Source: Iphione sp. A-MEVVRFRX5
Taxonomy: Eukaryota
DNA: 64,000 bases
Reading direction: 5' to 3'
NCBI GenBank assembly: GCA_976226885.1
Contig: OZ320316.1
Coordinates: 88,660,001 to 88,724,000, forward strand
The notes under the pieces are model-generated. The model saw only the letters and a program-made list of their open reading frames with translations. It ran no database searches and was not told the DNA's origin. This document shows, one piece after another, positions 32,906 through 57,849 of this stretch. Position numbers and translations under genes: made by a program. Within the stretch, counting starts at the first letter, position 1. Every line of letters begins with the position of its first letter.

Positions 32906-33017
32906 TAATGGTGACGGCATGATTGAAGGGCGAGTCATTAGTGAACCAACCAACCCTGACCGCTACACCGTATATAAACCCTTGAAATCGCTTCCTCGGC
33001 CTCTCTCTCGTTTTGCT
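32906..33017 (+). repeat. Split direct repeat A1 (promoter-bearing)
   Basis: Identical to 37333-37444; contains TATATAAA at 32971-32978, about 30 nt before a pyrimidine-rich CTCTCTCGTTTT initiator-like stretch. Confidence 0.95.
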
Positions 33018-33075: not shown

Positions 33076-34350
33076 ATGTCGCTGTCACCTGACGAAACTG
33101 CTACCCCTGGCAAGGGAAAAGAAAAGACTACAAAGCTCAAGGTGACCGACCGCCTTGAAAGGCTCGAAAGAGCCATGGACGACATTGCTTTATTGAAAAC
33201 ACATATTCTTTCCCTTTCAGCAACCTCCCAGCAGACACAGGGAGAGCCTGTCACCGGTCAGAGCAACGAAAGTTCGTCAGACGAGAGGCCAGCAGACCCC
33301 ATCCCGGGTACAAGTCAGCAAGGAACCGAGACGGCAGCTACTACCCAGACGAACCAGCCCAATGCAGCGTCGAACCAACCTGTCCAGTTCAACACTTCAG
33401 GCGAACCACGTGGCGAACCTCGACACCGCGTCACAATGGGCACGAGCGTGACAGTGGGCACCAACAACACGTGGCCGTCCTTCCCTCAGCAGACGGGCGT
33501 CCTGATGCAGCCAGCACTTCTCCAGGCCCAGCAATACAAGCACCAGTCAGCGCCAGCAGTCGAGTTCTTCCCTCGTCGTCACCAGGCCGGGCATGCTGTT
33601 CTACCTACGCCTAACGAACTTCGCAGTGGACCGTCAGTCCAACACTATATAGATTCATACCTGGACGCTACGGCTCCGTGGCTCAGCCAAACTAACGAGA
33701 ACCGAGGTAACATAGACCTAAGGGTGCGAAATCTGATCCCGAAACCACACATGTACGTTCAAAAAGACGGTTTATCAACTCCGAAACAGAAAAATGAGTA
33801 TCGGGAAAAGATAACGTACCACGAGTTCGTGCCAGCATATTTTGCAATGCTTAAAGATGAGCACGCATTTGCCAGTCATGAAAAACCATATGTTCTTGAA
33901 CACTTATTCCATGTTACCCAGGACGCCCAGAGGCGCCCATGGAAGAATGTTAGGAGGTGGTCAAATAACATATTTGATATGATAGAAAGAAACGAAATAA
34001 CTTGGGCACACAGTCATGAAATAGCATATGAAAGGCTCATGGTCTCGATGGCGGGCGTATCCCCTGGTGATGTAGTTGAGGTTCCATGTCCTGTGTATAA
34101 TTCTGCTACATGCATCCACAAGTCAGACTATCACCAAGAACAAGAGGTAAAATTCCTCCACGTTTGCATGTATTGCTTCGCACTCAACGGTGCGAAGCAC
34201 GCTCATGCGAACAGTGTGTGTGGGAAAAGAGCAAAAATCAACCTAGCTCCAAAAACGCAAAACACGCAACATGGACAACAAAATACTCGTCCCCATTACC
34301 AGACAAATGCCCCACAGTACACTCAGCAGAAGCAGTCAAAAAACGAGTAG
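33076..34350 (+). CDS. Gag-like ORF1 of YR retrotransposon (424 aa from first ATG)
   Basis: ORF 33013-34350, first ATG at 33076. Q/T/P-rich N-half, helical core (PW..VRRWSN..FD.IE..W) and a Cys/His cluster CPVYNSATCIH...HVCMYC...HAHANSVC, typical of DIRS/Ngaro Gag. Confidence 0.85.
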   Translation: MSLSPDETATPGKGKEKTTKLKVTDRLERLERAMDDIALLKTHILSLSATSQQTQGEPVTGQSNESSSDERPADPIPGTSQQGTETAATTQTNQPNAASNQPVQFNTSGEPRGEPRHRVTMGTSVTVGTNNTWPSFPQQTGVLMQPALLQAQQYKHQSAPAVEFFPRRHQAGHAVLPTPNELRSGPSVQHYIDSYLDATAPWLSQTNENRGNIDLRVRNLIPKPHMYVQKDGLSTPKQKNEYREKITYHEFVPAYFAMLKDEHAFASHEKPYVLEHLFHVTQDAQRRPWKNVRRWSNNIFDMIERNEITWAHSHEIAYERLMVSMAGVSPGDVVEVPCPVYNSATCIHKSDYHQEQEVKFLHVCMYCFALNGAKHAHANSVCGKRAKINLAPKTQNTQHGQQNTRPHYQTNAPQYTQQKQSKNE

Positions 34351-36197
34351 AACCGGTCCTACCAACATGCCAGACAGTTGGGCGGGCCGTAATGCACCCA
34401 CACACAACAGAAATAGATTTTGCACTTGTCCGTGAGATATGCCGGTCAGACGACCGGGATATCACCCAAGCATGTACGTTTCGACAATTAGCTGACCACA
34501 AAGCACGAACATGGCCAAATATAGACCTGGGCGATGTTTCCTCTTCTCTCATTCCCATATACAACAGCGTCCGTGCTGACGGGAGACCCAACTTGTTGGG
34601 CGCACGACTCCCCATTCCTTCCACTACAAATATTACTGCTTGGGCCACATACCTACGTCACGACTACACCGACCCACAACTTATTGACTTGCTTACGTAT
34701 GGGTTCCCATTGGGCTACATGGGCCCTGGGTCTACCTGTTCGAGCGGAAATAACCACCCATCTGCTAAACAGTACCCACAAGCCATTGATACCTATGTAG
34801 AAAAGGAATTAGCCCTGAATGCGATCCATGGCCCTTTTGATAACCCACCGTTTGATCCCTGGTTTCACACATCACCTCTTATGACCCGCCCTAAGAGAGA
34901 CACCGACAAAAGGCGAGTCATTCTAGATATGTCATATCCAGATAGTGAGTCAGTAAATGCATACATAGGCAAGAATATGGTATTAGGGGTAGTTAGAGAT
35001 CACTCGCTTCCTACCATACAGTCGTTACTAACCACCATTAGACAAGTTGGAGGGTCTCCTTACCTGGCAACCATTGACATCGCCCGGGCATACAGAAATT
35101 TCGGGACTTGTCCGCTCGATTGGCCGTTGATGGGGTTCAAATGGAATGGAAAATATTATTTTGACACCGCCATTCCGTTTGGATCCCGTTGCTCGGCCAA
35201 TCACATGCAGCGGATTGCCGATGCTATTGTCCGCATACTCAGCAGAGAAGGGATCACTGCATATATGTACCTGGACGATTTAATATTGGTTGAGCCTTGT
35301 CAGGAGAAAGCACAATCAGCATTTGCACGCGTACAAGACCTACTATCAGAGCTGAACTTGCCAGAGGCAAAAGAAAAGGCCCAGCCCCCTCAAAAACTTG
35401 TAACTTGGTTAGGTATTAACATCGACACATATGCAATGACAGTCTCAATTCCACCCTCGAGGGTCACGGACATTCTGGATGTAGTCACGAAGAGTGAGAA
35501 GTGTAAGAGCATGGTTAAGCACGACTTTCAAAGTCTCTTAGGGAAGGTGCTTCAGATAGCAAGATGTGTTGCCCCTGCACGTCTGTTTGTCAGTAGGCTT
35601 CTTAAGAACTTAAGAGAGGCGAGAGGAAGGTATGTAAAGATCGATGGCGAGGCAAAATTAGACCTGAGATGGTTCATTACGTACTTGAAACAATGGAACG
35701 GAATAGCTATCATTCCCCGAACCCAAGTAGACCGAGAGATAGTCGTAGATGCGTGCCTCTCGGGGATTGGTGGGGCTGATAGCTCCAGGTGGTATGCCGA
35801 GAAAATCCCAGCCTTCTGCCAGGGATTTCATATCACTCAGATCGAAGCTGTTAACCTCCTCATTGCGGTTAAAACATTCGTAGGCGAAAGAGACGCCGGT
35901 AAGCAGATTAAGATCAGGTGCGACAATATGCCCGCAGTAGATATGTTCCGCTCGGGCAGGGGAAGGGACCCTATTCTCCTAAAATGTGCTCGATCTTTGT
36001 GGTTTCACCAGGCATTGTATCATGTCACGATCATATATGAACATACTCCAGGGGAGCACATGACCTTCGCTGATGCTCTTTCTCGCTGGGATGATCACCC
36101 TAAGTTCCAATTTATAGCTGCGGACTTCATCGCAGCAGGTAATTTGCAAAAAATTAATTCTGTAACAGACCCTAATGCCTTGTGGTCTGACTTGTAA
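34110..36197 (+). CDS. Reverse transcriptase / RNase H (ORF2)
   Basis: RT: SPLMTRPK, RRVILDMS, TIDIARAYRN, IPFGSRCSA, YLDD (35268-35279), TWLGINID. RNase H: VDAC, EAVN, CDN, H.PG...ADALSR. Overlaps ORF1 in the -1 frame; no methyltransferase domain after RNase H. Confidence 0.95.
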   Translation: MHPQVRLSPRTRGKIPPRLHVLLRTQRCEARSCEQCVWEKSKNQPSSKNAKHATWTTKYSSPLPDKCPTVHSAEAVKKRVEPVLPTCQTVGRAVMHPHTTEIDFALVREICRSDDRDITQACTFRQLADHKARTWPNIDLGDVSSSLIPIYNSVRADGRPNLLGARLPIPSTTNITAWATYLRHDYTDPQLIDLLTYGFPLGYMGPGSTCSSGNNHPSAKQYPQAIDTYVEKELALNAIHGPFDNPPFDPWFHTSPLMTRPKRDTDKRRVILDMSYPDSESVNAYIGKNMVLGVVRDHSLPTIQSLLTTIRQVGGSPYLATIDIARAYRNFGTCPLDWPLMGFKWNGKYYFDTAIPFGSRCSANHMQRIADAIVRILSREGITAYMYLDDLILVEPCQEKAQSAFARVQDLLSELNLPEAKEKAQPPQKLVTWLGINIDTYAMTVSIPPSRVTDILDVVTKSEKCKSMVKHDFQSLLGKVLQIARCVAPARLFVSRLLKNLREARGRYVKIDGEAKLDLRWFITYLKQWNGIAIIPRTQVDREIVVDACLSGIGGADSSRWYAEKIPAFCQGFHITQIEAVNLLIAVKTFVGERDAGKQIKIRCDNMPAVDMFRSGRGRDPILLKCARSLWFHQALYHVTIIYEHTPGEHMTFADALSRWDDHPKFQFIAADFIAAGNLQKINSVTDPNALWSDL

Positions 36198-36208
36198 TTC
36201 CAGATCCT

Positions 36209-37168
36209 GTGGCGGTGCGGCTGGCAGCGGAGGCAGAACGGCTTGTAGCCAATGCAAGGGCCCCAGGAACTATAGAAAACAGAAGGTCGGCCACTCGTGC
36301 ATACTTGTCTTTCTGCTACCGCTTCCAAGTGACTCCACTACAGCCCACGCCTCTCCAGGCTTGTATGTATATCCGTTACCTCGCCAGTTTCGTCTCAAGT
36401 CCTGCCTCAGTTTCAAACGCTATTTCACATATTCGTGAATTTCTTCGCGACCACGGCATCGAACAAACGGGCTTCACCTCTCGTCAGGCAAAGCACGCGC
36501 TAGATGCCCTGAACCGATCTAAGTGTTATCTTGTTGAACGAAAACGTCCATTAGGGGCTGGCGAGGTAAAACGGCTTATGTACGCCACCCTTCCCCAGGC
36601 ATATGGCCTCATAGTCAGGATGGCATACCTTCTAATGTTCTATGCTGGCCTACGCCAGTCTGAAGTGGCCCCTCGATCGCTACACTCTTTCGACCCTGAT
36701 CGCCACCCGACTAGGGATGATGTTGCTGTTCTCGACGATAAACTGCTACTTCGTCAGAAATGGTCCAAAACCAGGCAAATGTACGATCAGGCCCGCGACA
36801 TTATTTTACCTACCTCTTCCGACCCTATTTTGTGCCCTGTACATACTTACAAGACCCTTGTCGCAGTGTATCCGACCGTACGTAAACGCCAGCCCCTGTT
36901 GTGCTGGAATTCGGACACTGCTCCTATCACGTCTCCATGGCTAGCTAAGAAGTTACATGAATTGGCTTCGCATGCGGGGATTGACTCATCTGCCCTGTCG
37001 TTACATAGTTTTCGTAGGACAGCTGCTACCCTGGCATACGAGAATGGCTGTGATACCTTACAGGTCCAACACTTTGGTTCATGGAAGTCGGAAGCGTATC
37101 AATCTTATGTTAGCACTCGCAACTCCAAGCAGGTCTCGGAGATACTAGTGCGGTCACTCACTAAATAA
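36209..37168 (+). CDS. Tyrosine recombinase (ORF3, lambda-integrase family)
   Basis: Catalytic set intact: R (GLRQSE), K (WSKT), HxxR (HSFRR), W (GSWKS), Y (AYQSY), after a core-binding-like N-terminal region. No ATG at the 5' end; frame opens at 36191. Confidence 0.95.
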   Translation: MAVRLAAEAERLVANARAPGTIENRRSATRAYLSFCYRFQVTPLQPTPLQACMYIRYLASFVSSPASVSNAISHIREFLRDHGIEQTGFTSRQAKHALDALNRSKCYLVERKRPLGAGEVKRLMYATLPQAYGLIVRMAYLLMFYAGLRQSEVAPRSLHSFDPDRHPTRDDVAVLDDKLLLRQKWSKTRQMYDQARDIILPTSSDPILCPVHTYKTLVAVYPTVRKRQPLLCWNSDTAPITSPWLAKKLHELASHAGIDSSALSLHSFRRTAATLAYENGCDTLQVQHFGSWKSEAYQSYVSTRNSKQVSEILVRSLTK

Positions 37169-37177
37169 ACCCCTTTT

Positions 37178-37337
37178 GGCGCATATCTCGATGTATTTTA
37201 TCAATTATACCACTATTGTGTTTTATTATTGTACAAACATCTTAACTTGATATTTTAATATCTTGTGTGTGCAATAAAATTGCCCAAAAATCAGATGTCC
37301 GTTCACCTTATTTATGTAGTTGGTAGTAGAACTAATG
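37178..37337 (+). repeat. Split direct repeat B1
   Basis: Identical to 37498-37657; AT-rich with AATAAA at 37273-37278. Confidence 0.95.
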
Positions 37338-37444
37338 GTGACGGCATGATTGAAGGGCGAGTCATTAGTGAACCAACCAACCCTGACCGCTACACCGTAT
37401 ATAAACCCTTGAAATCGCTTCCTCGGCCTCTCTCTCGTTTTGCT
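37333..37444 (+). repeat. Split direct repeat A2
   Basis: Identical to A1; overlaps B1 by TAATG. Confidence 0.95.
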
Positions 37445-37497: not shown

Positions 37498-37657
37498 GGC
37501 GCATATCTCGATGTATTTTATCAATTATACCACTATTGTGTTTTATTATTGTACAAACATCTTAACTTGATATTTTAATATCTTGTGTGTGCAATAAAAT
37601 TGCCCAAAAATCAGATGTCCGTTCACCTTATTTATGTAGTTGGTAGTAGAACTAATG
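37498..37657 (+). repeat. Split direct repeat B2 (3' terminus)
   Basis: Identical to B1; AATAAA at 37593-37598; ends in TAATG. Confidence 0.95.
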
Positions 37658-47563: not shown

Positions 47564-47861
47564 TGTAACGTCCGCTCCGCAAGTAAGACATAACTCCAGT
47601 TAAGGTAATGAGGTTTATTCAGTAAGAGCAATATGAGCATCAACAGTGAGCACCAAAGGTAATCTGAACTGCCCGAGGGGCCAACTCCCTTATATACCCA
47701 TCCCCAGTCTCTTCAGCATCCGGGTACCGGACCCCTCCTACTCCGCAGCACCCCTACGAGTGCCGCACGGGGGCGTGCCGCTGCACCCTACCAGTCCAAT
47801 CCACCTGTGCCGCAGCATCCCTTGTATGCCACGGTGCCGCAGCCACGCAGTGGCTCCAACA
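47564..47861 (-). repeat. 3' LTR
   Basis: Direct repeat of 57552-57849; minus strand has TATATAA and AATAAA. Confidence 0.97.
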
Positions 47862-47874
47862 TTGCCCTCCCCTT
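47862..47874 (-). other. Polypurine tract
   Basis: Minus strand AAGGGGAGGGCAA directly abutting the 3' LTR. Confidence 0.85.
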
Positions 47875-48042
47875 AGAGGTTGCTTGTCCTCAAGCAACTC
47901 GCTTCCCAACCGTAACTGTAACTGTAACTGTTCAACACACTCAGGTCCTGGGGCGGTCTGACGTCCGAGTCCGGTAACACATTCCTCGTAATGTCACGAA
48001 TCCAGGGGCAGTCCAATCGTCAGCTATACCCGTCTCCCAGAA

Positions 48043-51000
48043 TCACAGGTGAACCGTCCACGACTCTCGGATATGTACTTCCACGTTGCCCCCGGCGGTG
48101 GGCTCTTCCCGCCACGTGGACAGGAGTCGCACTGGGCGGCCCCGCGTCAGTACCGTCCCATAGTTGGTGTACCATGTAGCCAACTCGCTGCCTGGGACCG
48201 GCACCCCAAGCCGCCGGAAGGTGATGGTTTGCCGGAGGATGACTTTCACTTGCCCGGCGGTGAGCACCTGCACATCCAAAGCTGAGGTGTTGGAAATGAC
48301 CATCCACCCGGGCGGTAGGGTGGATTCTGGCGACACCAACCGTGATGCCGCCCAGACGTACACGGCGGCCGGAACCTCTTCCTCTGCTCCTGATGAGCCT
48401 GACACGTCCTGCAGGGATGCTCCCGTCCCAGGGGTTGGCGGGCCAGAGGGGGGGTCTGGTCGCGTCCCCCACCTTCCTGCCCCAGGGAGCGCCGGTGGCC
48501 CCAGCGCAAGGGAGGGGCCCGGGGGAGGGCGCGCTCCGCGGCCAGGACCCGGTGTCGGGCCGCGCGGGAACCCTCCGGGCGGTGCTGCTGCTGTTAGATC
48601 CTCCCAAGGCCTGATGGGGGCTATTCCGCGGGGGCTCGCCCTTCCCTCGCCTCCTGGAGTTCCCTGGGTGGATGTGGAAGGGGGCCCCCGTCCGCGGCCC
48701 CTTGCGGTCTCCCCAGCCGTCGAGGGCACGACGGCCCTGTCTTGCTTCTTCAGGGGTCCTTCCGGCCGAGTTATCCCCGGTGGCGGAGGCGCGCCCTGAC
48801 TCCGAGTCAGCCCCACGGACCAGCTCCCTCTCCCCCGCGAGGGCGGCAGCACCAGCTGGAGATGGAGTGGAGGGGCCCGACGTACCCCCTCCGTCGGCCC
48901 TCTAGGCCCTCTAGGTCGCTCTGGGCTCGCCGTCTCCTCGGTGGCGCCTTTTTGTTGACTTCCGGCCGGTACTTTCTCGGGGGTAGGGCTTATGGCCGGA
49001 CTGGTCGCCGGGCTGGTGACTGGCCCGGCCCCCTCTGCGGTGACCGTCTCGCCCTCTGTCGGCCCCCTGGGCTCGTGAGGCCGCCCTGGGCTTGCCGTCA
49101 CCTCTTCGCCTTTCTGCTCCGAGGTGGTTGGGACGTTCGGCTGGCTCTCAGCTGGTGCCTCTTCAATGGTCGGGCTCGCGGCTGGACTGGCCGTGGGGCC
49201 GGGAGCTGACCCGGCCCCCTTGGCGGTAGTAGGTTTGAATGTCACGCCGCCAACCGGGCCCTCCTCCGTCTCCGCCTCCCTCTGCGTAACGGAAGTCGGG
49301 ACCTCTTCCTGCTGTGAACTTCCCGACGATCTTGCCGTAATTCCCACCGCATCTGCGTTGCTGGTTCCCACGGGCACCCCTGGCGCCGTGGGTATGGTTG
49401 GCTGGGAACCCCGGGAATCAGTGTCCTGCACTGGCGAGCTTTGCGGGCACGGAGCAGTGCCGTCGGGGGGGGGGGGCTCCGACTCCTCTTCGGAGGATTC
49501 TTCCTCAAAGAGGGTCGCTAGCTCTTGTTCCTCCTCACCGTCGTTCTCAGGGGCATGCCCCTCGCTCGTGGGCCCGTGTGTCTCGGTCGGGCCTGTGGTC
49601 AAGGGCTCCCCGGCCGGGTCAGCCTCCGCGGCCCCCCCCAATCTCGGCTTCTTGGCAGGCGACGGTGTGATGGACCCGGGCGGTGTCACAAGATCCACCA
49701 CGTCTCCCTCCTCCGGCCGCTCCCAACCTACGCCTAGGCGTTCGTCCAGTCAACGTTCGTCCTCTTCCCACAAGGGCGCCCCGAACGGGGTCCCTGGCCT
49801 GGGCTCCCCGCGACGGTCGGGGGCACCCCTACCCATACCAGGGAGGCGACATGGGGGTGACAGCCCGACAGGCCAGGCAGTGGGGGAGGCCCGGAAGGTT
49901 GCTCGAACTCCCACCTGGCGAGTCCCCGCCGCGCCAGAGAGTCCGAACGGTCCCTCGCCCCTCGGCTCCATGGTCGTGACCCGGGGCAGGGTCACCCGCA
50001 GTTGCGGGGGGGGCTCATCAGCCGACGTCTGACTAGCTGAGTCTAGGAACAGCCTACGTCCCTTATAGTGCGACGCCCCGGTAGGCAGGTCAATGTTGTC
50101 GGGCATGGCCACCTCTGGCCGTGGTGGGGGGGCGTTCCGTCTTTCTTTTTCTTGGGTAGGGGGGCGGTGCGGTCTCGCATACGTGCGGGTGGCCAAACGC
50201 TGGTCCAGGCGGGGTGGGGGTCCCGACCCTCCACTGCCCTGGCTATCTCCCGTCGCGGCTTCCGTGGAACCAGTGTATTGGCCTGGGGCTTCCTGGGGCG
50301 AGGGCTCGGCCGTGGAAGGGGTGCCACCGTCACCCGCCCCATCGGGGGTTCCTGTGCCACGATCCGACGTCCGGCCGGAGACGGGGGACCCCCCTCCCTC
50401 GCTGTCCGGTGGAAGGTCGGGCATGGTCGATGACGGAGACCCGGGAGCGCGATGGTCAGGCCCCTCCTCGCGGGGGATGCTGGCCGCCCATTCCTTCACC
50501 AAGCCCCGTGCCTCATCCGTGGAAGAGTCCCGACCCGAGCTGCTGCTAGGTGGGGGACCCGGTGGGGTATGCGGCCCTCGGTGCGGGGCGTCTACTGAGC
50601 GGCCCACCCCTCGTCTCTCCAGAGCAGTAGTAGTGCCCTCGGCGTAGGGGGAGCGTGGCGGTACTTCCTCATCCGGTTCCGGCGCTCCTGTAGTCGCGGG
50701 CGGCGGGGGGGGTCCGGCGCAACTGCTCCCACTCCGGTCGGTGTCCCCGGTCATGGTCTCCTCCCCGCCCAAGGGGCCCGAAGACACCGTCCGAGATACC
50801 ACCCCCGGCGCCCGGGCGGACGGCAGGGCACTCTCTTCTCACGAGCCGGGAGGGGGGTCCCTCCGTTGTCGGGTGGGCGCTCCCCGTCGCATCGTACCTT
50901 CCGGGTTCCCCCAATTGCTCGAGGTCCCGACGGGGTTGACGCGCCAGTAGACGTCGACAGCTGTGCTGGCGGTGGCCCCGCCCGGTCCTCCAGCTGCTTG

Positions 51001-51980
51001 GCCGACGAGCCTGCCCCGGGCCCTTGCTGCCGATGGGTTGCAGCTCCTGAGGTGACCACTGAGGGTCCCTCCGCTCGGTTGTCGCCACCTTCTTCTGGCG
51101 TTGTGGAGCGCCCTCTCTTTTTACTACTTCGCTTTGAGGCCCCTCTGTGCGTCGGGGGTCGACCCGCCGCTCTACGTACTTCTTTCTCCCGGCTCTTCTT
51201 CTCTCGGGCCCGAGCTCGCTGAAGCATCTCTACCTTGTCGGCCAGGCAGAGGCGCGGTTCCCCATAGGTGGGGTTGAGGCCCCAGAACCGTAGGTACTGG
51301 AGGTTCACTGTCAGGGCCCAATCGTTGGGTTCGTGGACCCCATTCAGGTGCCACTTCCAGTCGGTGCGCTGGTGGAAGGCTTGTTGCTCACACTCAGGGT
51401 CAGGGCACAACCATCCCAACCCCTCGGGCGCGTGCACATCCTTCAGGTGGCGGCGCAGGTTGGACGGCTGTGCGAACGTGGATGCACAGCGGGAGCAGCG
51501 GTGGCGGCGCTCCTCAGGGGCACCCGGTTCTTCCTCACCAGAGGACTCCGAGTCGTCGCTCTCAGCGTCGGGTGGGGGGGCGTCCTCTGGTGCGTTGGCC
51601 ATGTCGTCGATGCGGCGATGCGGCACCGGTGGGGCGCAGTTCACAGGTGGCGCACAGCCGCTCGGTACCGGGACGGCGAGGGCCGCAGCGGCACTGCGGG
51701 TCTGGACCGGCTTCGGCGGGGTAGGGTCAGCCTCTGCGGCACTGCGAGTCTCCTCACGTGGATCGCTGACTGCGGCGTTGCGGTGGTCCTCCTGCTGTTG
51801 GTCGCCACCGGGTGGTGCCGCTGCGGTACCTTGGGGCCCTGGCCGCGGCGGGTTGTCCGCTAGACCGCCGCAGGGCGGCAGAGAGGGAGTCGACCTCACT
51901 GGGGCGTGCGAGTCTGCGGCCACTACGTCTGAGGGGGATGGTGCGGCTACAGTCCACCCCCGCGCGGCACGCCAGTCGAG
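48043..51980 (-). pseudogene. Accessory ORF3 of the Gypsy element: 2x C2H2 zinc finger, NLS-like patch, low-complexity linker, C-terminal globular domain (interrupted)
   Basis: Track ORFs 50751-52082, 49750-50802 and 48043-49701. The last two share a frame and are split only by TGA at 49750-49752; one frameshift lies between the first two. ZF1 CSRCASTFAQPSNLRRHLKDVH and ZF2 CPDPECEQQAFHQRTDWKWHLNGVH at 51333-51497; internal ATG at 51602. Confidence 0.75.
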
Positions 51981-54900
51981 CTGCGGAAGAAAGGTACCCA
52001 TGAGAGTAACGGTTCCAGGTAGTTCCCTCCGCAGCGGCGACAGGTTTACCACACATTTCATCGAAAAACAAGGGTGCATCACGATCTTCGCCGCTCACCC
52101 AGCGCGGCTTTCTCCCGTTACCCCGATTATCACCCATGTGTGCCGCTATCAACGGTAGGTTCCTCACCTCGTGCTGCCGCGGCGAATCCCTCGTGGAAGT
52201 AGGTCGTCGAGCGGCAGCGGCTTCTCCTCTGTCGCCGCAGCCTCGGGTCGATATTTCCCGGTCGGGGGAATTAGGTGCGTTCCGTCGGCGTTCGACACGT
52301 GCTGCGTTGATCACGACGCTGTGGATCGTGTGGTGTCGCTCGGGTGCAACTTCCTGCGGCTCCCCTGGCGCCGTCTGGAGACGAACGGTCGAAGCGTGCA
52401 GTTCTGCAGGTGACGGGGCGGGGACCAGCGCTCTGCCATTTATAAGCTGAGGTGCGGCTGCGGCGCCCCCTAACGGTGTGGCATAACCGTGCGGCCCCGC
52501 GGCTTCCTCATGGGCCCACTGTGTCTTGTCTTGTGCTGCTGCGGCCTCCTGGACGCCGCACGTAACCTGGGGGTCGAGATGGGCGATCTTCAGGCGATCG
52601 GCATGAACTACTCTATGCCGATGTCCACGGCTGACTCGGTACACTACCTCGGACAACGCCTTCTCCACGGTCCAAGGTCCCTCCCACCAACTCTGTAACT
52701 TCTGGGAGATTCCCTTCTTACGGGCCGGGGTGAATAGCCAGACCCGGTCGCCCTCGGCGTACCGTTGGTGCCGCACCCCTCGGTTGTACCAGTCCTTCTG
52801 CTGCGCTGCCACGCGACTCAGCTTCTCCGCTACCTTCTCATGCGCCCGGCGGACCTCTTCTGCTATCCGGCTCGCATATTCCCCACGATCCACCAGGGGC
52901 CGGGCCACCATTGCGCAGCTCCACTGGCAACGTCACCTCTCGGTGCAACAACGTCTGGTTCGGTGATTCCCCCGTGGTGTTGTGGGGGGTGGCCCGGTAG
53001 GCGGCCATCACGAACGGCAGGGCTTGGTCCCAGTCCTTCCGGCGCTCCTCGGCTAGCGTGCCCAGCATGTTCCCCAATGTGCGATTAAATCCCTCGACTA
53101 CCCCATCACTCTGGGGGTGGTAGGGGGTGGTTCAGGACTTCTCTATCCCAAGGAGTCGTAGTACTTCAACGAACAGCGCTGCCTCGAAGTTACGGCCCTG
53201 GTCCGAATGGAGTACCCGTGGGGGGCCGAAACGGCAGACCACCTCCCTAATGATGATGTCTGCTGTGGCCGCCGCGGTGGCCTCTTCAAGAGGGAACGCT
53301 TCCGTCCATTTTGAGAAGTGGTCGGCCACTACCAGTATGTACCTGTTTCCCCTCTCCGTCACAGGAAGCGGCCCCAAGATGTCTGCCGCCAGCACTTCCC
53401 ACGGCTCCGACACGGGGCGTCCCTGAAGGTGGGCCCGGTGGCGCCTCCCCGGCCCCTTCCTTTGTTGGCATGCCTGACAACACTGGGACCAGTGTGCAAT
53501 GTCGCGCGACATCCCGTGCCAAAACCAGCGCCGGCGCAGCGCCGCTCCGGTTTTCTCTGGACTGAGGTGGCCACCCACCGGGCCCGCATGGGTCTCCTGC
53601 CAGAGGCTCTTCCGTATGGTCCGGGGGACATAGGTCTGAGGGAGCCTCTGCCTGTCCTCCTGTTCCCAAAGGCGCACCAGTGCTCCCGATCGGAGCTCGA
53701 GTCTCGGGCCTTCCGCTCTGAGTTGTCTCTCTTCCCAGGTCAATCCAGCCCGCAGTCCAGGGAGGGGCCCCCTTCCTCCAGCGCTTGGATGAGCTCGCCT
53801 GTTGCCGGTTCCGCCCTCTGCATCTGGCACACATCCGGACCACCCTCCACTCCAGCGATGCCTACCGCCGCCGCACTCTCGGACCCCAGGTCTCGCCGGC
53901 CGCACTGCTTGCATTCTTGCCGTGATAGTCCATCTGCGTTACCATGGCGTTTTCCTGGCCGATGCGTGATCCGGAGGTCATGACAGAAGACCTCCTCCAA
54001 CCACCTGGCCAGTTGTCCTTGTGGTTCGTGGAAGTTGCACAACCAGCGCAAGGAATCGTGGTCGGTGCGGATGTCTATGGCCCGGCCCCCCACATAGCAT
54101 CTAAACTTCCGGAGGGCGAACACCACCGCCAAGAGTTCCTTCCTCGTAACGCAGTAGTTTCGCTCGGGGCGGGTCAGTGTGCGGCTGGCATAGGCTAACA
54201 CCCGCTCACGCCCTTCCTGTACTTGAGACAACACCGCACCGATGCCGGTGTCGGAAGCATCGGTGTCCAGGAGCAATTGCCCCAAGGGTGTCGGGTAACC
54301 CAGGATGGGGGTAGTGGACAGCCGGGCTTTCAGCTGTTCGAAGGCTTCTTGACAGGCCGGGGACCACTCGAACTCCCGCTCCGCTCCAGCCAAGGCATGC
54401 AGGAGTGCCGCTAGGGTAGCAAACCCTTCCACAAAGCTGCGGTAGTATGAACCGAGTCCTAGAAAGCTTCGAAGTTCCGCTGCACACCGGGGGCGGGGCC
54501 ATCCTGATACGGCCCTGATCTTCTCTGGGTCGACCCCTACCCCTTCCGCCGAGACCCGATGGCCCAGGTATGCCACCTCTCGCTGGAATAGTTGACACTT
54601 GGACGCTTTGACGCGGAGTCCGGCCTCAATCAGCCTCTGGAACACCGTGCCGAGTCGGGTGCACATCTCCTCCACTGAGCGGCCCAGGACGATCACATCG
54701 TCGAGGTACACTAAACACTCGGTGCCCACGAAGCCCCGCAGTACGGACTCCATAAGCCGCTCAAAGGTGGAGGGCGCGTTGCAGAGGCCGAACGGCATCA
54801 CCCGGAACTGGTAAAGGCCGTTCGGGGTGCACACCGCCGTCTTTTCTGCGTCCGCCGGCTCCATCTCGACCTGCCAGTAACCGCTGGCCAGGTCGATCGC

Positions 54901-56241
54901 CGAAAAATACTGGCTACCCTGCAGAGCATCGAGGGTGTTGTCTATCCGGGGGAGGGGGAAAGCGTCCTTCTTGGTGATGGCGTTGAGTTTGCGATAGTCG
55001 ATGCAGAACCGTAGCCCCCCGTCTTTCTTTTGTACGAGCACCAACGGAGATGCCCATGGGCTTGTGGAGGGCTCCAGCACCCCCTTCTGCACCATCTTGT
55101 CTACCTCCGCGCGAACTGCCTCTCTCTTGTGAGGGGGGAGGCGCCTTGCTCGTTGTCGAATGGGTGGGTGACCCTGGGTGTCGATGCGATGTTGGACCTC
55201 CGGGGTACGGCCGAGAGGTCCACTGGCTGTCTGGAAGACCTCGCGATGGTGCTGTAGCATGGCCGCTATCTGCTGCCGCTCCGGGTCGGTGGTCTCCACC
55301 GGTAATTGTCCTAGCAAGTACTCTACAGCTTGCTCTTGCTCTGTCTCCACCTGTTCCTGGGGAGCTCCGGGTGGTCCAAGCACCGCGGCGACCTGACGGA
55401 GCTCGGCTAACCGGGTTCCCTCGAAGACTCGTGTCGCCTGGGAGCCGGGGTTCCACACTGGAACCCACACCCTCCCCTCCTGAGGTCGTACCAGCGCGCG
55501 AGCCACTCGTAACCCTGAGCGTGACTCGAACCTGGCGTCAGGCTCTGCCAACCCTTCCAAAGAGTCGACCCCTCCTTGACACGCCTTCGCCTGAACCCAG
55601 CCTATTCCTCCCGCAGGAATCTCTTGACTGCCGCTGGCTCGCAGGGTGGCTACCCATTCACGGTTGCCGGGCCAAACAGTGACCGTGGCCTTCCTCGTAT
55701 CCACTGTTGCCGCCCACCGATCCAGCCAGTCCAAGCCAAGTAGACCCGGTATCTCCATCTCTACCACAATGGCCACCACCTGTAGGGTGACCCCCGCAAA
55801 CCGAACTTCGCAATCCACCAGCCCCAATACTTGTAGGGCGCTGCCATCTACTCCAAAGACTCGCGCCCCCGCCGGGTCCAACGACACTCCCTGTAGTTCT
55901 CGGTAGGTCCGCGCTGAGAGGAGGGGAGCGGAGGCTCCTGTGTCCACCAGCCAATCCACCACCTGTCCGCCGACCTCTCCCTCTAGCAATACTCCCCGGC
56001 ACCGCGTCCTCCTCCTTCCCTGCAGTACCCTCCCTGGCTCCCCCTCGACGGCAGCGACCATCGCCTCCAAGGGGGGTCCCAGGCCGGGTGGTACGGAATC
56101 GGACGCCGCCCGCCCTACTGAGCCGGGGCGGGCGGCTTCTCGTTTTCCGGCTGCGTCGGAGCAACGTCGGCGGTGCTCTCGGCTGCCTTCCGCACCGGGC
56201 AGTCCCGCTTGAAGTGCCCGGGCTCCTTGCAGTAAAAGCAT
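51754..56241 (-). pseudogene. pol: Gypsy pol (protease, RT, RNase H, integrase) with 2 frameshifts and 1 nonsense codon
   Basis: PR DTGAS (about 55930-55944); RT YLDD (54697-54708); RH DASD/TDH/NADGLSR; IN HHCC, DILGP, SDQG, VEGFNRTL and C-terminal WEGPW. Frameshift about 53740-53775, in-frame TGA 53132-53134 in KS*TTPYHPQSDG, frameshift about 52915. Confidence 0.95.
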
Positions 56242-57534
56242 CCTTCGTTGTTCGCGCGCTTCCCGCCTCGCCTAACGGGGGAAGCAGTTGTTGCGGGCTG
56301 TTCCAGTAGTTTGGACAGGAGCTGCTCAATGCGCTCCAATCCGGTCGTTGTCTTGGTGTCGTGGCTGGTCGCAGCCACCTCTTGAGATTCGGCCTGTGCC
56401 GCATGGACACGCGTCGCCCCAGCCCCCAGGCTGCGCTCCTTCTCGGCGCGGTGGTACGACTCGGCCAAGAGCGCCTCCGAGATGGCTGCCTGAAAGGACC
56501 GGGCCTTAGCTTGCACGACCCATCTCCGGCAACGTTCTTCGCGGAGGGCCGAGACGAAGGCATCCTTGCACATTCGATCCAACCAGGAGCCCTCTGCCTC
56601 TGGGTAGGCCTGCCGCACCAATCTTTCAACCTCCTCGGCCAGTTTCTGGACGTCCTCGTCCTTCTTCTGGCGATGCTGTTTCAACTCCTGTTCATAATAC
56701 TGGGCTCGATCCTCCGACTGGAACCTCTGTCGCAGGGTCTCGACAATAGTCGAGAACGCTCCCTCAGCGGACACATCCACGTTGGCCGAGCGGAGGGCGG
56801 ATTGTGCCGAGCCCCTGAGACACACGCTGAGTTGCAGCGCCTGTTCCGCTTCGTCCCATCGGTTGGCCCGGGCCACCAGTGAGAAGTGATGCAAATATTC
56901 CGCGAGGGGAACTCCTCCACTGAAGGATTCCGGTTTGACATGGAACCGGCGTGTAGGGGGTACCGGGGGGGCAGGCCGGAGAGCGGACTGGATCTCATCC
57001 ATCAGTCCCCGCATCAGCTGGACGGCATTTCCCTGCCCGTCCCCGGCAGGGCTCGAGTTGTGCGGGGAAGGGCCAGCTGGTGGGGCTGCTGGCGGCGGGG
57101 AGACTGGGGTAGCGGGGTCGTTGGGGTTTGCCGTTCCATCCGCCTGTCCTCCTACCCCGGTGGGAGCCCCGGGCGTGGTGTCGTCACTGCCCCCCCCCGC
57201 GGGGTGAGCCGGCCCCGCTGGGGATAGAAGAATCCTCACTGCTGCTGCAGCTCGATGAGTGGTCTTCGTCCAACCGTGCTGTGCCGCTGCGGCGCAACGG
57301 GGTGCTGCGGCACGGTGGGGTGCTGCGGCGCAGTGGGGTGCTGCGGCACGGTGGGGTGCCGCGGCCCCGCGGCGCGTGATGCGCCCCGAGCTGCACCTCC
57401 TCGTCCTCAGTGCTGGAGTCTTCCCTCGTGGGGGACCACTCGTGGGGAATGGTACGTCCCACGTGTCCCCCCCGGGGGGCAGGCCGTGTCCCCCTTCCTC
57501 GCGGTCGCGGTACGCCCGTGGGTGATTCCTCCAT
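56115..57534 (-). pseudogene. gag: Gypsy gag with one frameshift in a G9 run
   Basis: KPESFSG..LAEYLHHF...N.W capsid-like region and CCHC knuckle CFYCKEPGHFKRDC. The likely N-terminus MEESPT (ATG 57534-57532) joins the main frame if the C9 run at 57190-57198 were C8. Confidence 0.85.
57286..57365. repeat. 18-bp tandem repeat x4.4 in the gag 5' region
   Basis: Units gctgcggc(g/a)c(a/g)(a/g)(c/t)ggggt at 57286, 57304, 57322 and 57340; encodes TP(P/L)(C/R)RS repeats. Confidence 0.9.
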
Positions 57535-57550
57535 CCCACCGCTGCCACCA
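57533..57550 (-). other. Primer binding site complementary to tRNA-Leu (AAG/TAG type) 3' end
   Basis: Plus strand ATCCCACCGCTGCCACCA (18 nt) matches the conserved metazoan tRNA-Leu(AAG/TAG) 3' terminus including CCA; 1 nt from the 5' LTR. Confidence 0.85.
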
Positions 57551-57551
57551 A

Positions 57552-57849
57552 TGTAACGTCTGCTCCGCAAGTAAGACATAACTCCAGTTAAGGTAATGAG
57601 GTTTATTCAGTAAGAGCAATATGAGCATCAACAGTGAGCACCAAAGGTAATCTGAACTGCCCGAGGGGCCAACTCCCTTATATACCCATCCCCAGTCTCT
57701 TCAGCATCCGGGTACCGGACCCCTCCTACTCCGCAGCACCCCTACGAGTGCCGCACGGGGGCGTGCCGCTGCACCCTACCAGTCCAATCCACCTGTGCCG
57801 CAGCACCCCTTGTATGCCGCGGTGCCACAGCCACGCAGTGGCTCCAACA
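57552..57849 (-). repeat. 5' LTR
   Basis: Direct repeat of 47564-47861; TATATAA (57684-57678) and AATAAA (57607-57602) on the minus strand. Confidence 0.97.

Follow-up and report, generated by a model that had tools for sequence, protein, structure and literature searches.

Retrotransposons of the Ngaro superfamily, which belongs to the DIRS order, carry a gag-like open reading frame (ORF), a reverse transcriptase/RNase H (RT/RH) ORF and a tyrosine recombinase (YR) ORF within split direct repeats (PMC8547959, PMC4157794). In the parts of the literature covered here, the expression of overlapping ORFs in DIRS-order elements has so far been put down only to "probable" frameshifting, and this at the RT/RH-YR overlap, from which YR would be produced (Poulter and Butler 2015, quoted in PMC13003380); YR has also been described as lying either in the same frame or in a shifted one (PMC3783388). 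Among animal retroelements more broadly, pol is in the -1 frame in 28 of 51, -1 gag-pol arrangements are common in long terminal repeat (LTR) elements, and A_AAA_AAC ranks with the eukaryotic heptamers most prone to shifting (PMC5009743, the covered part of which makes no mention of DIRS or Ngaro). Here we analyze a 4.75 kb element with three ORFs, all on the + strand, within a 64,000-nucleotide (nt) stretch of Iphione sp. A-MEVVRFRX5 DNA (assembly GCA_976226885.1, contig OZ320316.1, positions 88,660,001 to 88,724,000; hereafter the window). By its repeats, ORF order and Pfam domains, the element is an intact Ngaro-type tyrosine-recombinase retrotransposon. We suggest that A_AAA_AAC at the end of its gag, together with a predicted stem-loop, very probably constitutes a programmed -1 frameshift signal that fuses RT/RH to Gag and is common to a large Ngaro clade.

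The gag-RT/RH junction and its counterparts in relatives

The junction is built from the following features:

33076..34350, + strand: gag-like ORF, 424 amino acids (aa) from its first ATG (33076)
34101..36197, + strand: RT/RNase H ORF, stop to stop; PF00078, E 5.8e-13; -1 relative to gag; predicted entry at 34344
34338..34344, + strand: slippery heptamer A_AAA_AAC (AAAAAAC) in the gag frame, preceded by C; read from the sequence
34345..34353, + strand: 9-nt spacer, containing the gag stop codon (34348-34350)
34354..34389, + strand: predicted stimulatory stem-loop of 6 bp, a 2x2 internal loop and 5 bp, with a possible 2-bp extension

Gag ends in the codons TCA AAA AAC GAG TAG, leaving one sense codon between the heptamer and the stop, and the site combines a zero-frame X_XXY_YYZ heptamer with an open -1 frame; the same heptamer serves gag-pro of mouse mammary tumour virus. 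The initial annotation had proposed this heptamer, an RT/RH ORF in the -1 frame, a 9-nt spacer, two sets of stem arms and a fusion of approximately 1040 aa. All of its coordinates for the heptamer, spacer and arms are correct, the frame relationship is confirmed, the arms pair in the minimum free energy (MFE) structure, and a -1 shift in translation from ATG 33076 computes to 1040 aa. No other canonical gag-frame heptamer lies in the gag/RT overlap; a second one in gag, G_GGA_AAA at 33114-33120 near the gag start, followed by hairpins about 17 nt later, is probably a chance occurrence. Canonical heptamers arise at about 0.002-0.003 per position, so the coincidence at this single locus is only suggestive and the case rests on conservation. 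The -1 frame is also free of stops for 79 codons 5' of the heptamer (34101-34337), which is more than the mechanism requires.

Structures that stimulate programmed -1 ribosomal frameshifting usually lie about 5-9 nt downstream of the slippery site, and the predicted structure here follows a 9-nt spacer with z-scores of -2.5 to -2.85. Its stem pairs (34354-59 with 34384-89, and 34362-66 with 34377-81) are members of the MFE structure, with probabilities of 0.83-1.0 for the 11 listed pairs in a 181-nt context. The segment 34345-34420 has an MFE of -19.9 kcal/mol (z -2.54; 1 of 200 shuffles equally good), and the segment 34350-34394 one of -18.3 (z -2.85; 10 of 1000 shuffles equally good). A pseudoknot partner for the loop, sought within 60 nt, was represented by 4-bp matches only, and Rfam returned two sub-threshold matches and nothing else. 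The proposed frameshift site lies between two more strong hairpins. That at 34174-34199, in the gag/RT overlap, gives the element its most stable 45-nt windows, and that at 34436-34464 is about 47 nt beyond the predicted stem; they are possible packaging or auxiliary signals.

Relatives of Gag were gathered by a full HMMER search with its C-terminal 254 aa, which gave 488 at E<=0.001 (a word-indexed search had found none), and the best 150 were analyzed. An H.C..C motif was present in 124 of these, and dropping five with tails under 15 or over 120 aa left 119. K-N occurs within the last 26 residues of 109 of the 119, against an expected rate of about 2.8% per 26-residue window (5 in 4453 positions elsewhere in the tails), and in 88 of the 119 it is among the last 4 residues, no more than two separating it from the stop; the distance to the stop ranges from 0 to 22 residues. 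The residue preceding K-N is P in 56, S in 35, A in 14, T in 2, G in 1 and I in 1, such that a residue with NCN codons precedes it in 107 of 109 (background, 27%) and a residue unable to end in A in none (0/109, compared with about 30% of the background); the 11 positions further 5' are unconserved and Q/N-rich. Because the relatives are kin, binomial p-values for K-N overstate their independence. Median core identity among the 109 is 33%, and they form 44 single-linkage clusters at 50% identity and 13 at 40%, and the signal is even from strong to weak hits (37/40, 36/40 and 36/39), from which we judge that the conservation is not one family counted repeatedly. Absence of the motif from relatives, which the initial annotation had named as an outcome that would speak against it, is thus not what these Gag peptides indicate.

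The same nucleotides can be followed in the other frame. Gene models of 11 relatives cross the site in the RT frame (P0031, P0101, P0126, P0135, P0169, P0175, P0250, P0268, P0283, P0284 and P0286; P0131, a duplicate of P0101, was excluded), and ten of these read K-K-R or K-K-L and one K-R-R, where this element reads K-K-R. Taken through the genetic code, [P/S/A/T]-K-N in the gag frame and K-K-[R/L] in the RT frame together imply that C_A_AAA_AAC is present clade-wide, so that the heptamer appears conserved at the peptide level in both frames. For one family, P0123 and P0126, which share a 90% cluster, represent both frames, and the two agree except for one changed residue. Between K-K and the first conserved RT-region motif lie 26 residues here and as many as about 180 in relatives; the linker therefore seems free, with the slippery site fixed to the end of gag. 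Scans of metagenome, viral and prokaryote genomes contained no DNA of relatives, and 21 metagenome loci retrieved with a heptamer-plus-stem pattern were rejected as chance, none of the 21 matching the proteins of the element (tblastn, E<=1e-4).

Downstream of the heptamer, Gly is found three codons past K-K-x in 9 of the 11 RT-frame relatives, and among 21 gag tails at least five residues long, 18 have Ala at +4 and 13 have Pro at +5. Gly in one frame and Ala/Pro in the other point to a GC-rich word immediately following an 8-nt spacer. We therefore asked whether the peptides of relatives permit a helix better than shuffled peptides do. This post hoc test gave a combined Fisher p of 0.016 (n=10) and of 0.009 or 0.026 (n=11, two spacer settings), and p 0.002-0.01 when applied to this element as a positive control, making a conserved stem in the relatives plausible. 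The stem arms here are not the same sequence as the arm most often deduced for relatives, a difference that would count as compensatory change if borne out in DNA.

Several observations weigh against a programmed frameshift at this site. As modeled, the hairpin is good but not the strongest in the element, 11 of its 825 45-nt windows being at least as stable, and 4 of the 11 pairs in the predicted stem are G-U, in addition to the internal loop. The stem test, designed after the fact, reaches p<0.05 singly in just 2 of 11 relatives per setting. Ten of the 119 Gags have no K-N near their end, and R-N never substitutes for K-N in the last 5 residues, an invariance that fits a constraint on nucleotides and also a strict protein motif. 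The 11 RT-frame cases were chosen by eye (10 from pattern matches, 1 separately), and the nucleotide motif and stem of relatives are deduced from gene-model peptides, some of them from mutated copies or possibly mis-spliced.

Starting from the observed anatomy, frames, heptamer and heptamer-encoded residues conserved in both frames, the ribosomal steps, which we infer, would run as follows. Ribosomes would pause at the stem 8-9 nt downstream of the heptamer, where tRNA-Lys and tRNA-Asn would slip back by one base, allowing a minority of ribosomes to read on into RT/RH. Most would halt at the gag stop one codon later, and this would set the ratio of Gag to RT. The Gag-RT/RH fusion, with its variable linker between Gag and RT, would stay uncleaved, because no protease domain was detected in the Pfam scan.

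Other routes to RT/RH

RT/RH might instead be translated from an AUG of its own, through reinitiation past the gag stop, an internal promoter or a spliced mRNA, the heptamer being incidental or secondary. We consider this improbable, although a usable start that the initial annotation had missed counts in its favor and against a frameshift:

34392..34394, + strand: in-frame ATG, rival RT start, 2 nt past the stem

This ATG is 41 nt past the gag stop and has G at -3, and the RT gene models of many relatives begin at a Met in the long linker. However, 28 ATGs precede 34392, making leaky scanning implausible, and just 18 of 89 relatives have a Met 9-30 aa ahead of the first conserved Cys (of 120 RT relatives, the 31 without an aligned Cys were left out). 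Independent initiation, which the initial annotation had set against the frameshift, is disfavored by both counts; ATG 34110, which it had named, was rejected as the RT start, as the sequence there has no reliable homology and the similarity of relatives mostly begins near ORF residue 100-107. A further point for separate expression is the peptide Q/K-D-G-G/R, present in 12 of 66 Gag-RT linkers of relatives compared with 1 in 9234 control residues. It would fit a YY1-like DNA word and may reflect a promoter or packaging word at the DNA level, and its recurrence suggests that some relatives may have an extra internal promoter; the YY1-like word is absent from this element. The peptide often stands some 10-15 residues after D-V-I/T in linkers that are otherwise unconserved. 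Above all, initiation at a separate AUG leaves the conservation of K-N and K-K-R unexplained.

It is very unlikely that the C-terminal [P/S/A]-K-N is a protein motif of Gag, acting in binding or targeting, with its slippery appearance a by-product. Such a motif would suit the position of K-N, mostly within the last 4 residues, and the uniformly small residues that precede it, but the distance from K-N to the stop is variable, K-K-R/L in the RT-frame models fixes the codons, and a second positional motif is seen 8 nt downstream in both frames. Least probable of all is a fusion made by polymerase slippage in the A6 run, an extra A in some transcripts replacing the ribosomal shift: the P0101 and P0169 models seem from their peptides to go straight from the gag to the RT frame at K-K, as a run longer by one base would allow, but such models are rare and resemble copies with mutations or errors of assembly. 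The run is kept at six As, since K-N is never preceded by Q, K or E (0/109), any of which would make it longer, and an 8-9 nt spacer followed by a stem is ribosome geometry.

Element anatomy and expression of the recombinase

The remaining features of the element are these:

32906..33017, + strand: A1 split direct repeat, 112 nt, 100% identical to A2
32971-32978, + strand: TATATAAA within A1, a possible promoter
33707..33714, + strand: candidate 5' splice site GAG/GTAACA, phase 1, in frame with the YR acceptor
36187..36203, + strand: RT-YR junction, with a candidate branch point (CTGAC) and a candidate 3' splice site (TTCCAG)
36191..37168, + strand: YR ORF, stop to stop; PF00589, E 1.7e-08
37178..37337, + strand: B1 repeat, with AATAAA at 37273-37278
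37333..37444, + strand: A2 repeat, 100% identical to A1
37498..37657, + strand: B2 repeat, 100% identical to B1

The repeats are ordered A1-ORFs-B1-A2-B2, and gag-like, RT/RH and YR ORFs follow one another on a single strand; since the members of each repeat pair are identical and the frames are open, this is likely to be a young copy. Gag has a Cys/His motif and a Q/N-rich tail and ends in S-K-N-E-stop, and it matched no Pfam family above cut-off; a PDB sequence search with it gave two matches only, at E about 0.3. The RT/RH ORF contains YLDD and RNase H-like acidic motifs of catalytic type and ends about 36 aa past the last RNase H-like motif. RVT_1 was its sole match in the Pfam scan, with no protease or methyltransferase family, and the lack of a methyltransferase distinguishes it from PAT and DIRS1. 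In a protein atlas the RVT_1 clusters are eukaryotic, with Cnidaria, Mollusca and Basidiomycota the commonest recorded taxa, from few members.

The YR ORF overlaps RT/RH by 7 nt and has its first Met only at residue 59, and no slippery heptamer is found in this overlap. Splicing offers another route, and the initial annotation had proposed it. Of four donor-like sites in gag, only that at 33707 is in frame with YR, and splicing from it would join the N-terminal 210 aa of Gag to YR in a separate protein of about 531 aa (531 codons). Among relatives, G[K/R/N/M] stands at the place matching the donor in 99 of 105 anchored Gags, compared with 110 of 770 background windows (45 of the 150 Gag relatives, having no anchor, were left out). 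These are the residues that a phase-1 G/GTAA donor would encode, consistent with a conserved donor; their conservation could instead be a protein constraint.

The frames at the RT-YR junction point the same way. YR is in the +1 frame relative to RT in 53 of 63 RT relatives that read on into YR (control, 36 of 812 windows), in the same frame in one relative's model, and in the -1 frame in this element. The pattern used, derived from codons, resolved 53 of the 63; a stricter first pattern had left 38 of 63 unclear. That the frame differs between this element and its relatives fits splicing and not a -1 shift, and, given the predominance of +1 and the junction without a heptamer, we rejected such a shift as the way from RT into YR in this clade. 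YR thus probably comes by splicing, a proposal that gains indirect support from the in-frame donor and acceptor, the donor residues in relatives and a junction indifferent to frame. The 63 RT models run at least 75 residues, and often some 300, past the end of RNase H over YR in another frame; many relatives have a long stop-free RT-YR overlap, where the RT ORF here ends at the junction.

Elsewhere in the window, a second element (47564-57849, ORFs on the - strand) is about 60-70% GC and has 298-nt direct terminal repeats that are 99% identical. Its gag-, RT- and integrase-like ORFs look Gypsy-like by eye, with the pol region split over several ORFs. Its gag ends with G_GAA_AAC (56148-56142); after a 5-nt spacer comes an 11-bp GC stem, and the ORF that follows is in the -1 frame, which makes this a candidate second frameshift signal. 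The 3' part of this GC-rich neighbor (48043-52094, - strand) contains long Pro/Gly-rich ORFs, one with C2H2-like motifs, and at 61690-61754 there is a near-perfect inverted repeat of 32 bp, its arms 1 nt apart.

Comparison with known systems

The mechanism proposed for RT/RH is itself textbook; we found it undocumented at the gag-RT junction of this element order. Our literature search, which took in parts of PMC6681497, PMC3266345, PMC9210276, PMC7192593, PMC12440569 and bioRxiv 2022.06.16.496473, though not Goodwin and Poulter 2004 or Poulter and Goodwin 2005, met with no account of a slippery site for elements of the DIRS order. The initial annotation was aware of no work on three Gag-headed products in this element class. 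This stands in that we found no gag-RT slippery site described; it needs amending in that frameshifting had already been called probable in Ngaro, for the RT/RH-YR overlap. A clade-wide, exactly placed signal allows a direct test of the question with a reporter of under 100 nt. If the signal is real, it would give a protease-less element an uncleaved Gag-RT/RH fusion, bring the Gag-to-RT ratio of tyrosine-recombinase retrotransposons under a control like that of retroviruses, and explain the arbitrary downstream Mets at which gene callers place the RT starts of these elements.

Taking both routes together, a protease-less Ngaro clade might make three Gag-headed proteins from one transcription unit, through a conserved C_A_AAA_AAC -1 shift (Gag-RT/RH) and a mid-gag splice (Gag-YR). 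This would be an arrangement undescribed in the literature covered and would replace the published guess of a frameshift into YR; we regard the chances for and against this combined scheme as evenly balanced.

With the Ngaro superfamily the element shares its A1-[gag, RT/RH, YR]-B1 A2 B2 organization, the families PF00078 and PF00589 and the lack of a methyltransferase; it differs in a gag-RT slippery site and stem of which we found no description in the literature searched. The proposal of a -1 shift from RT/RH to YR (Poulter and Butler 2015, as quoted in PMC13003380) does not suit this clade, in which YR is mostly +1 and the junction, in this element, has no heptamer. The closest parallel is with the -1 cassettes of retroviruses and Ty3/Gypsy elements as far as PMC5009743 was covered, which likewise have an X_XXY_YYZ heptamer such as A_AAA_AAC at the end of gag, a short spacer, a downstream structure and pol in the -1 frame. 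Unlike these, the present element has neither a protease nor a DDE integrase, so that its fusion would not be self-processed; its stimulator is a predicted stem-loop for which no pseudoknot partner was found, its 8-9 nt spacer is at the long end, and its equivalent of an integrase, YR, would come from a spliced RNA.

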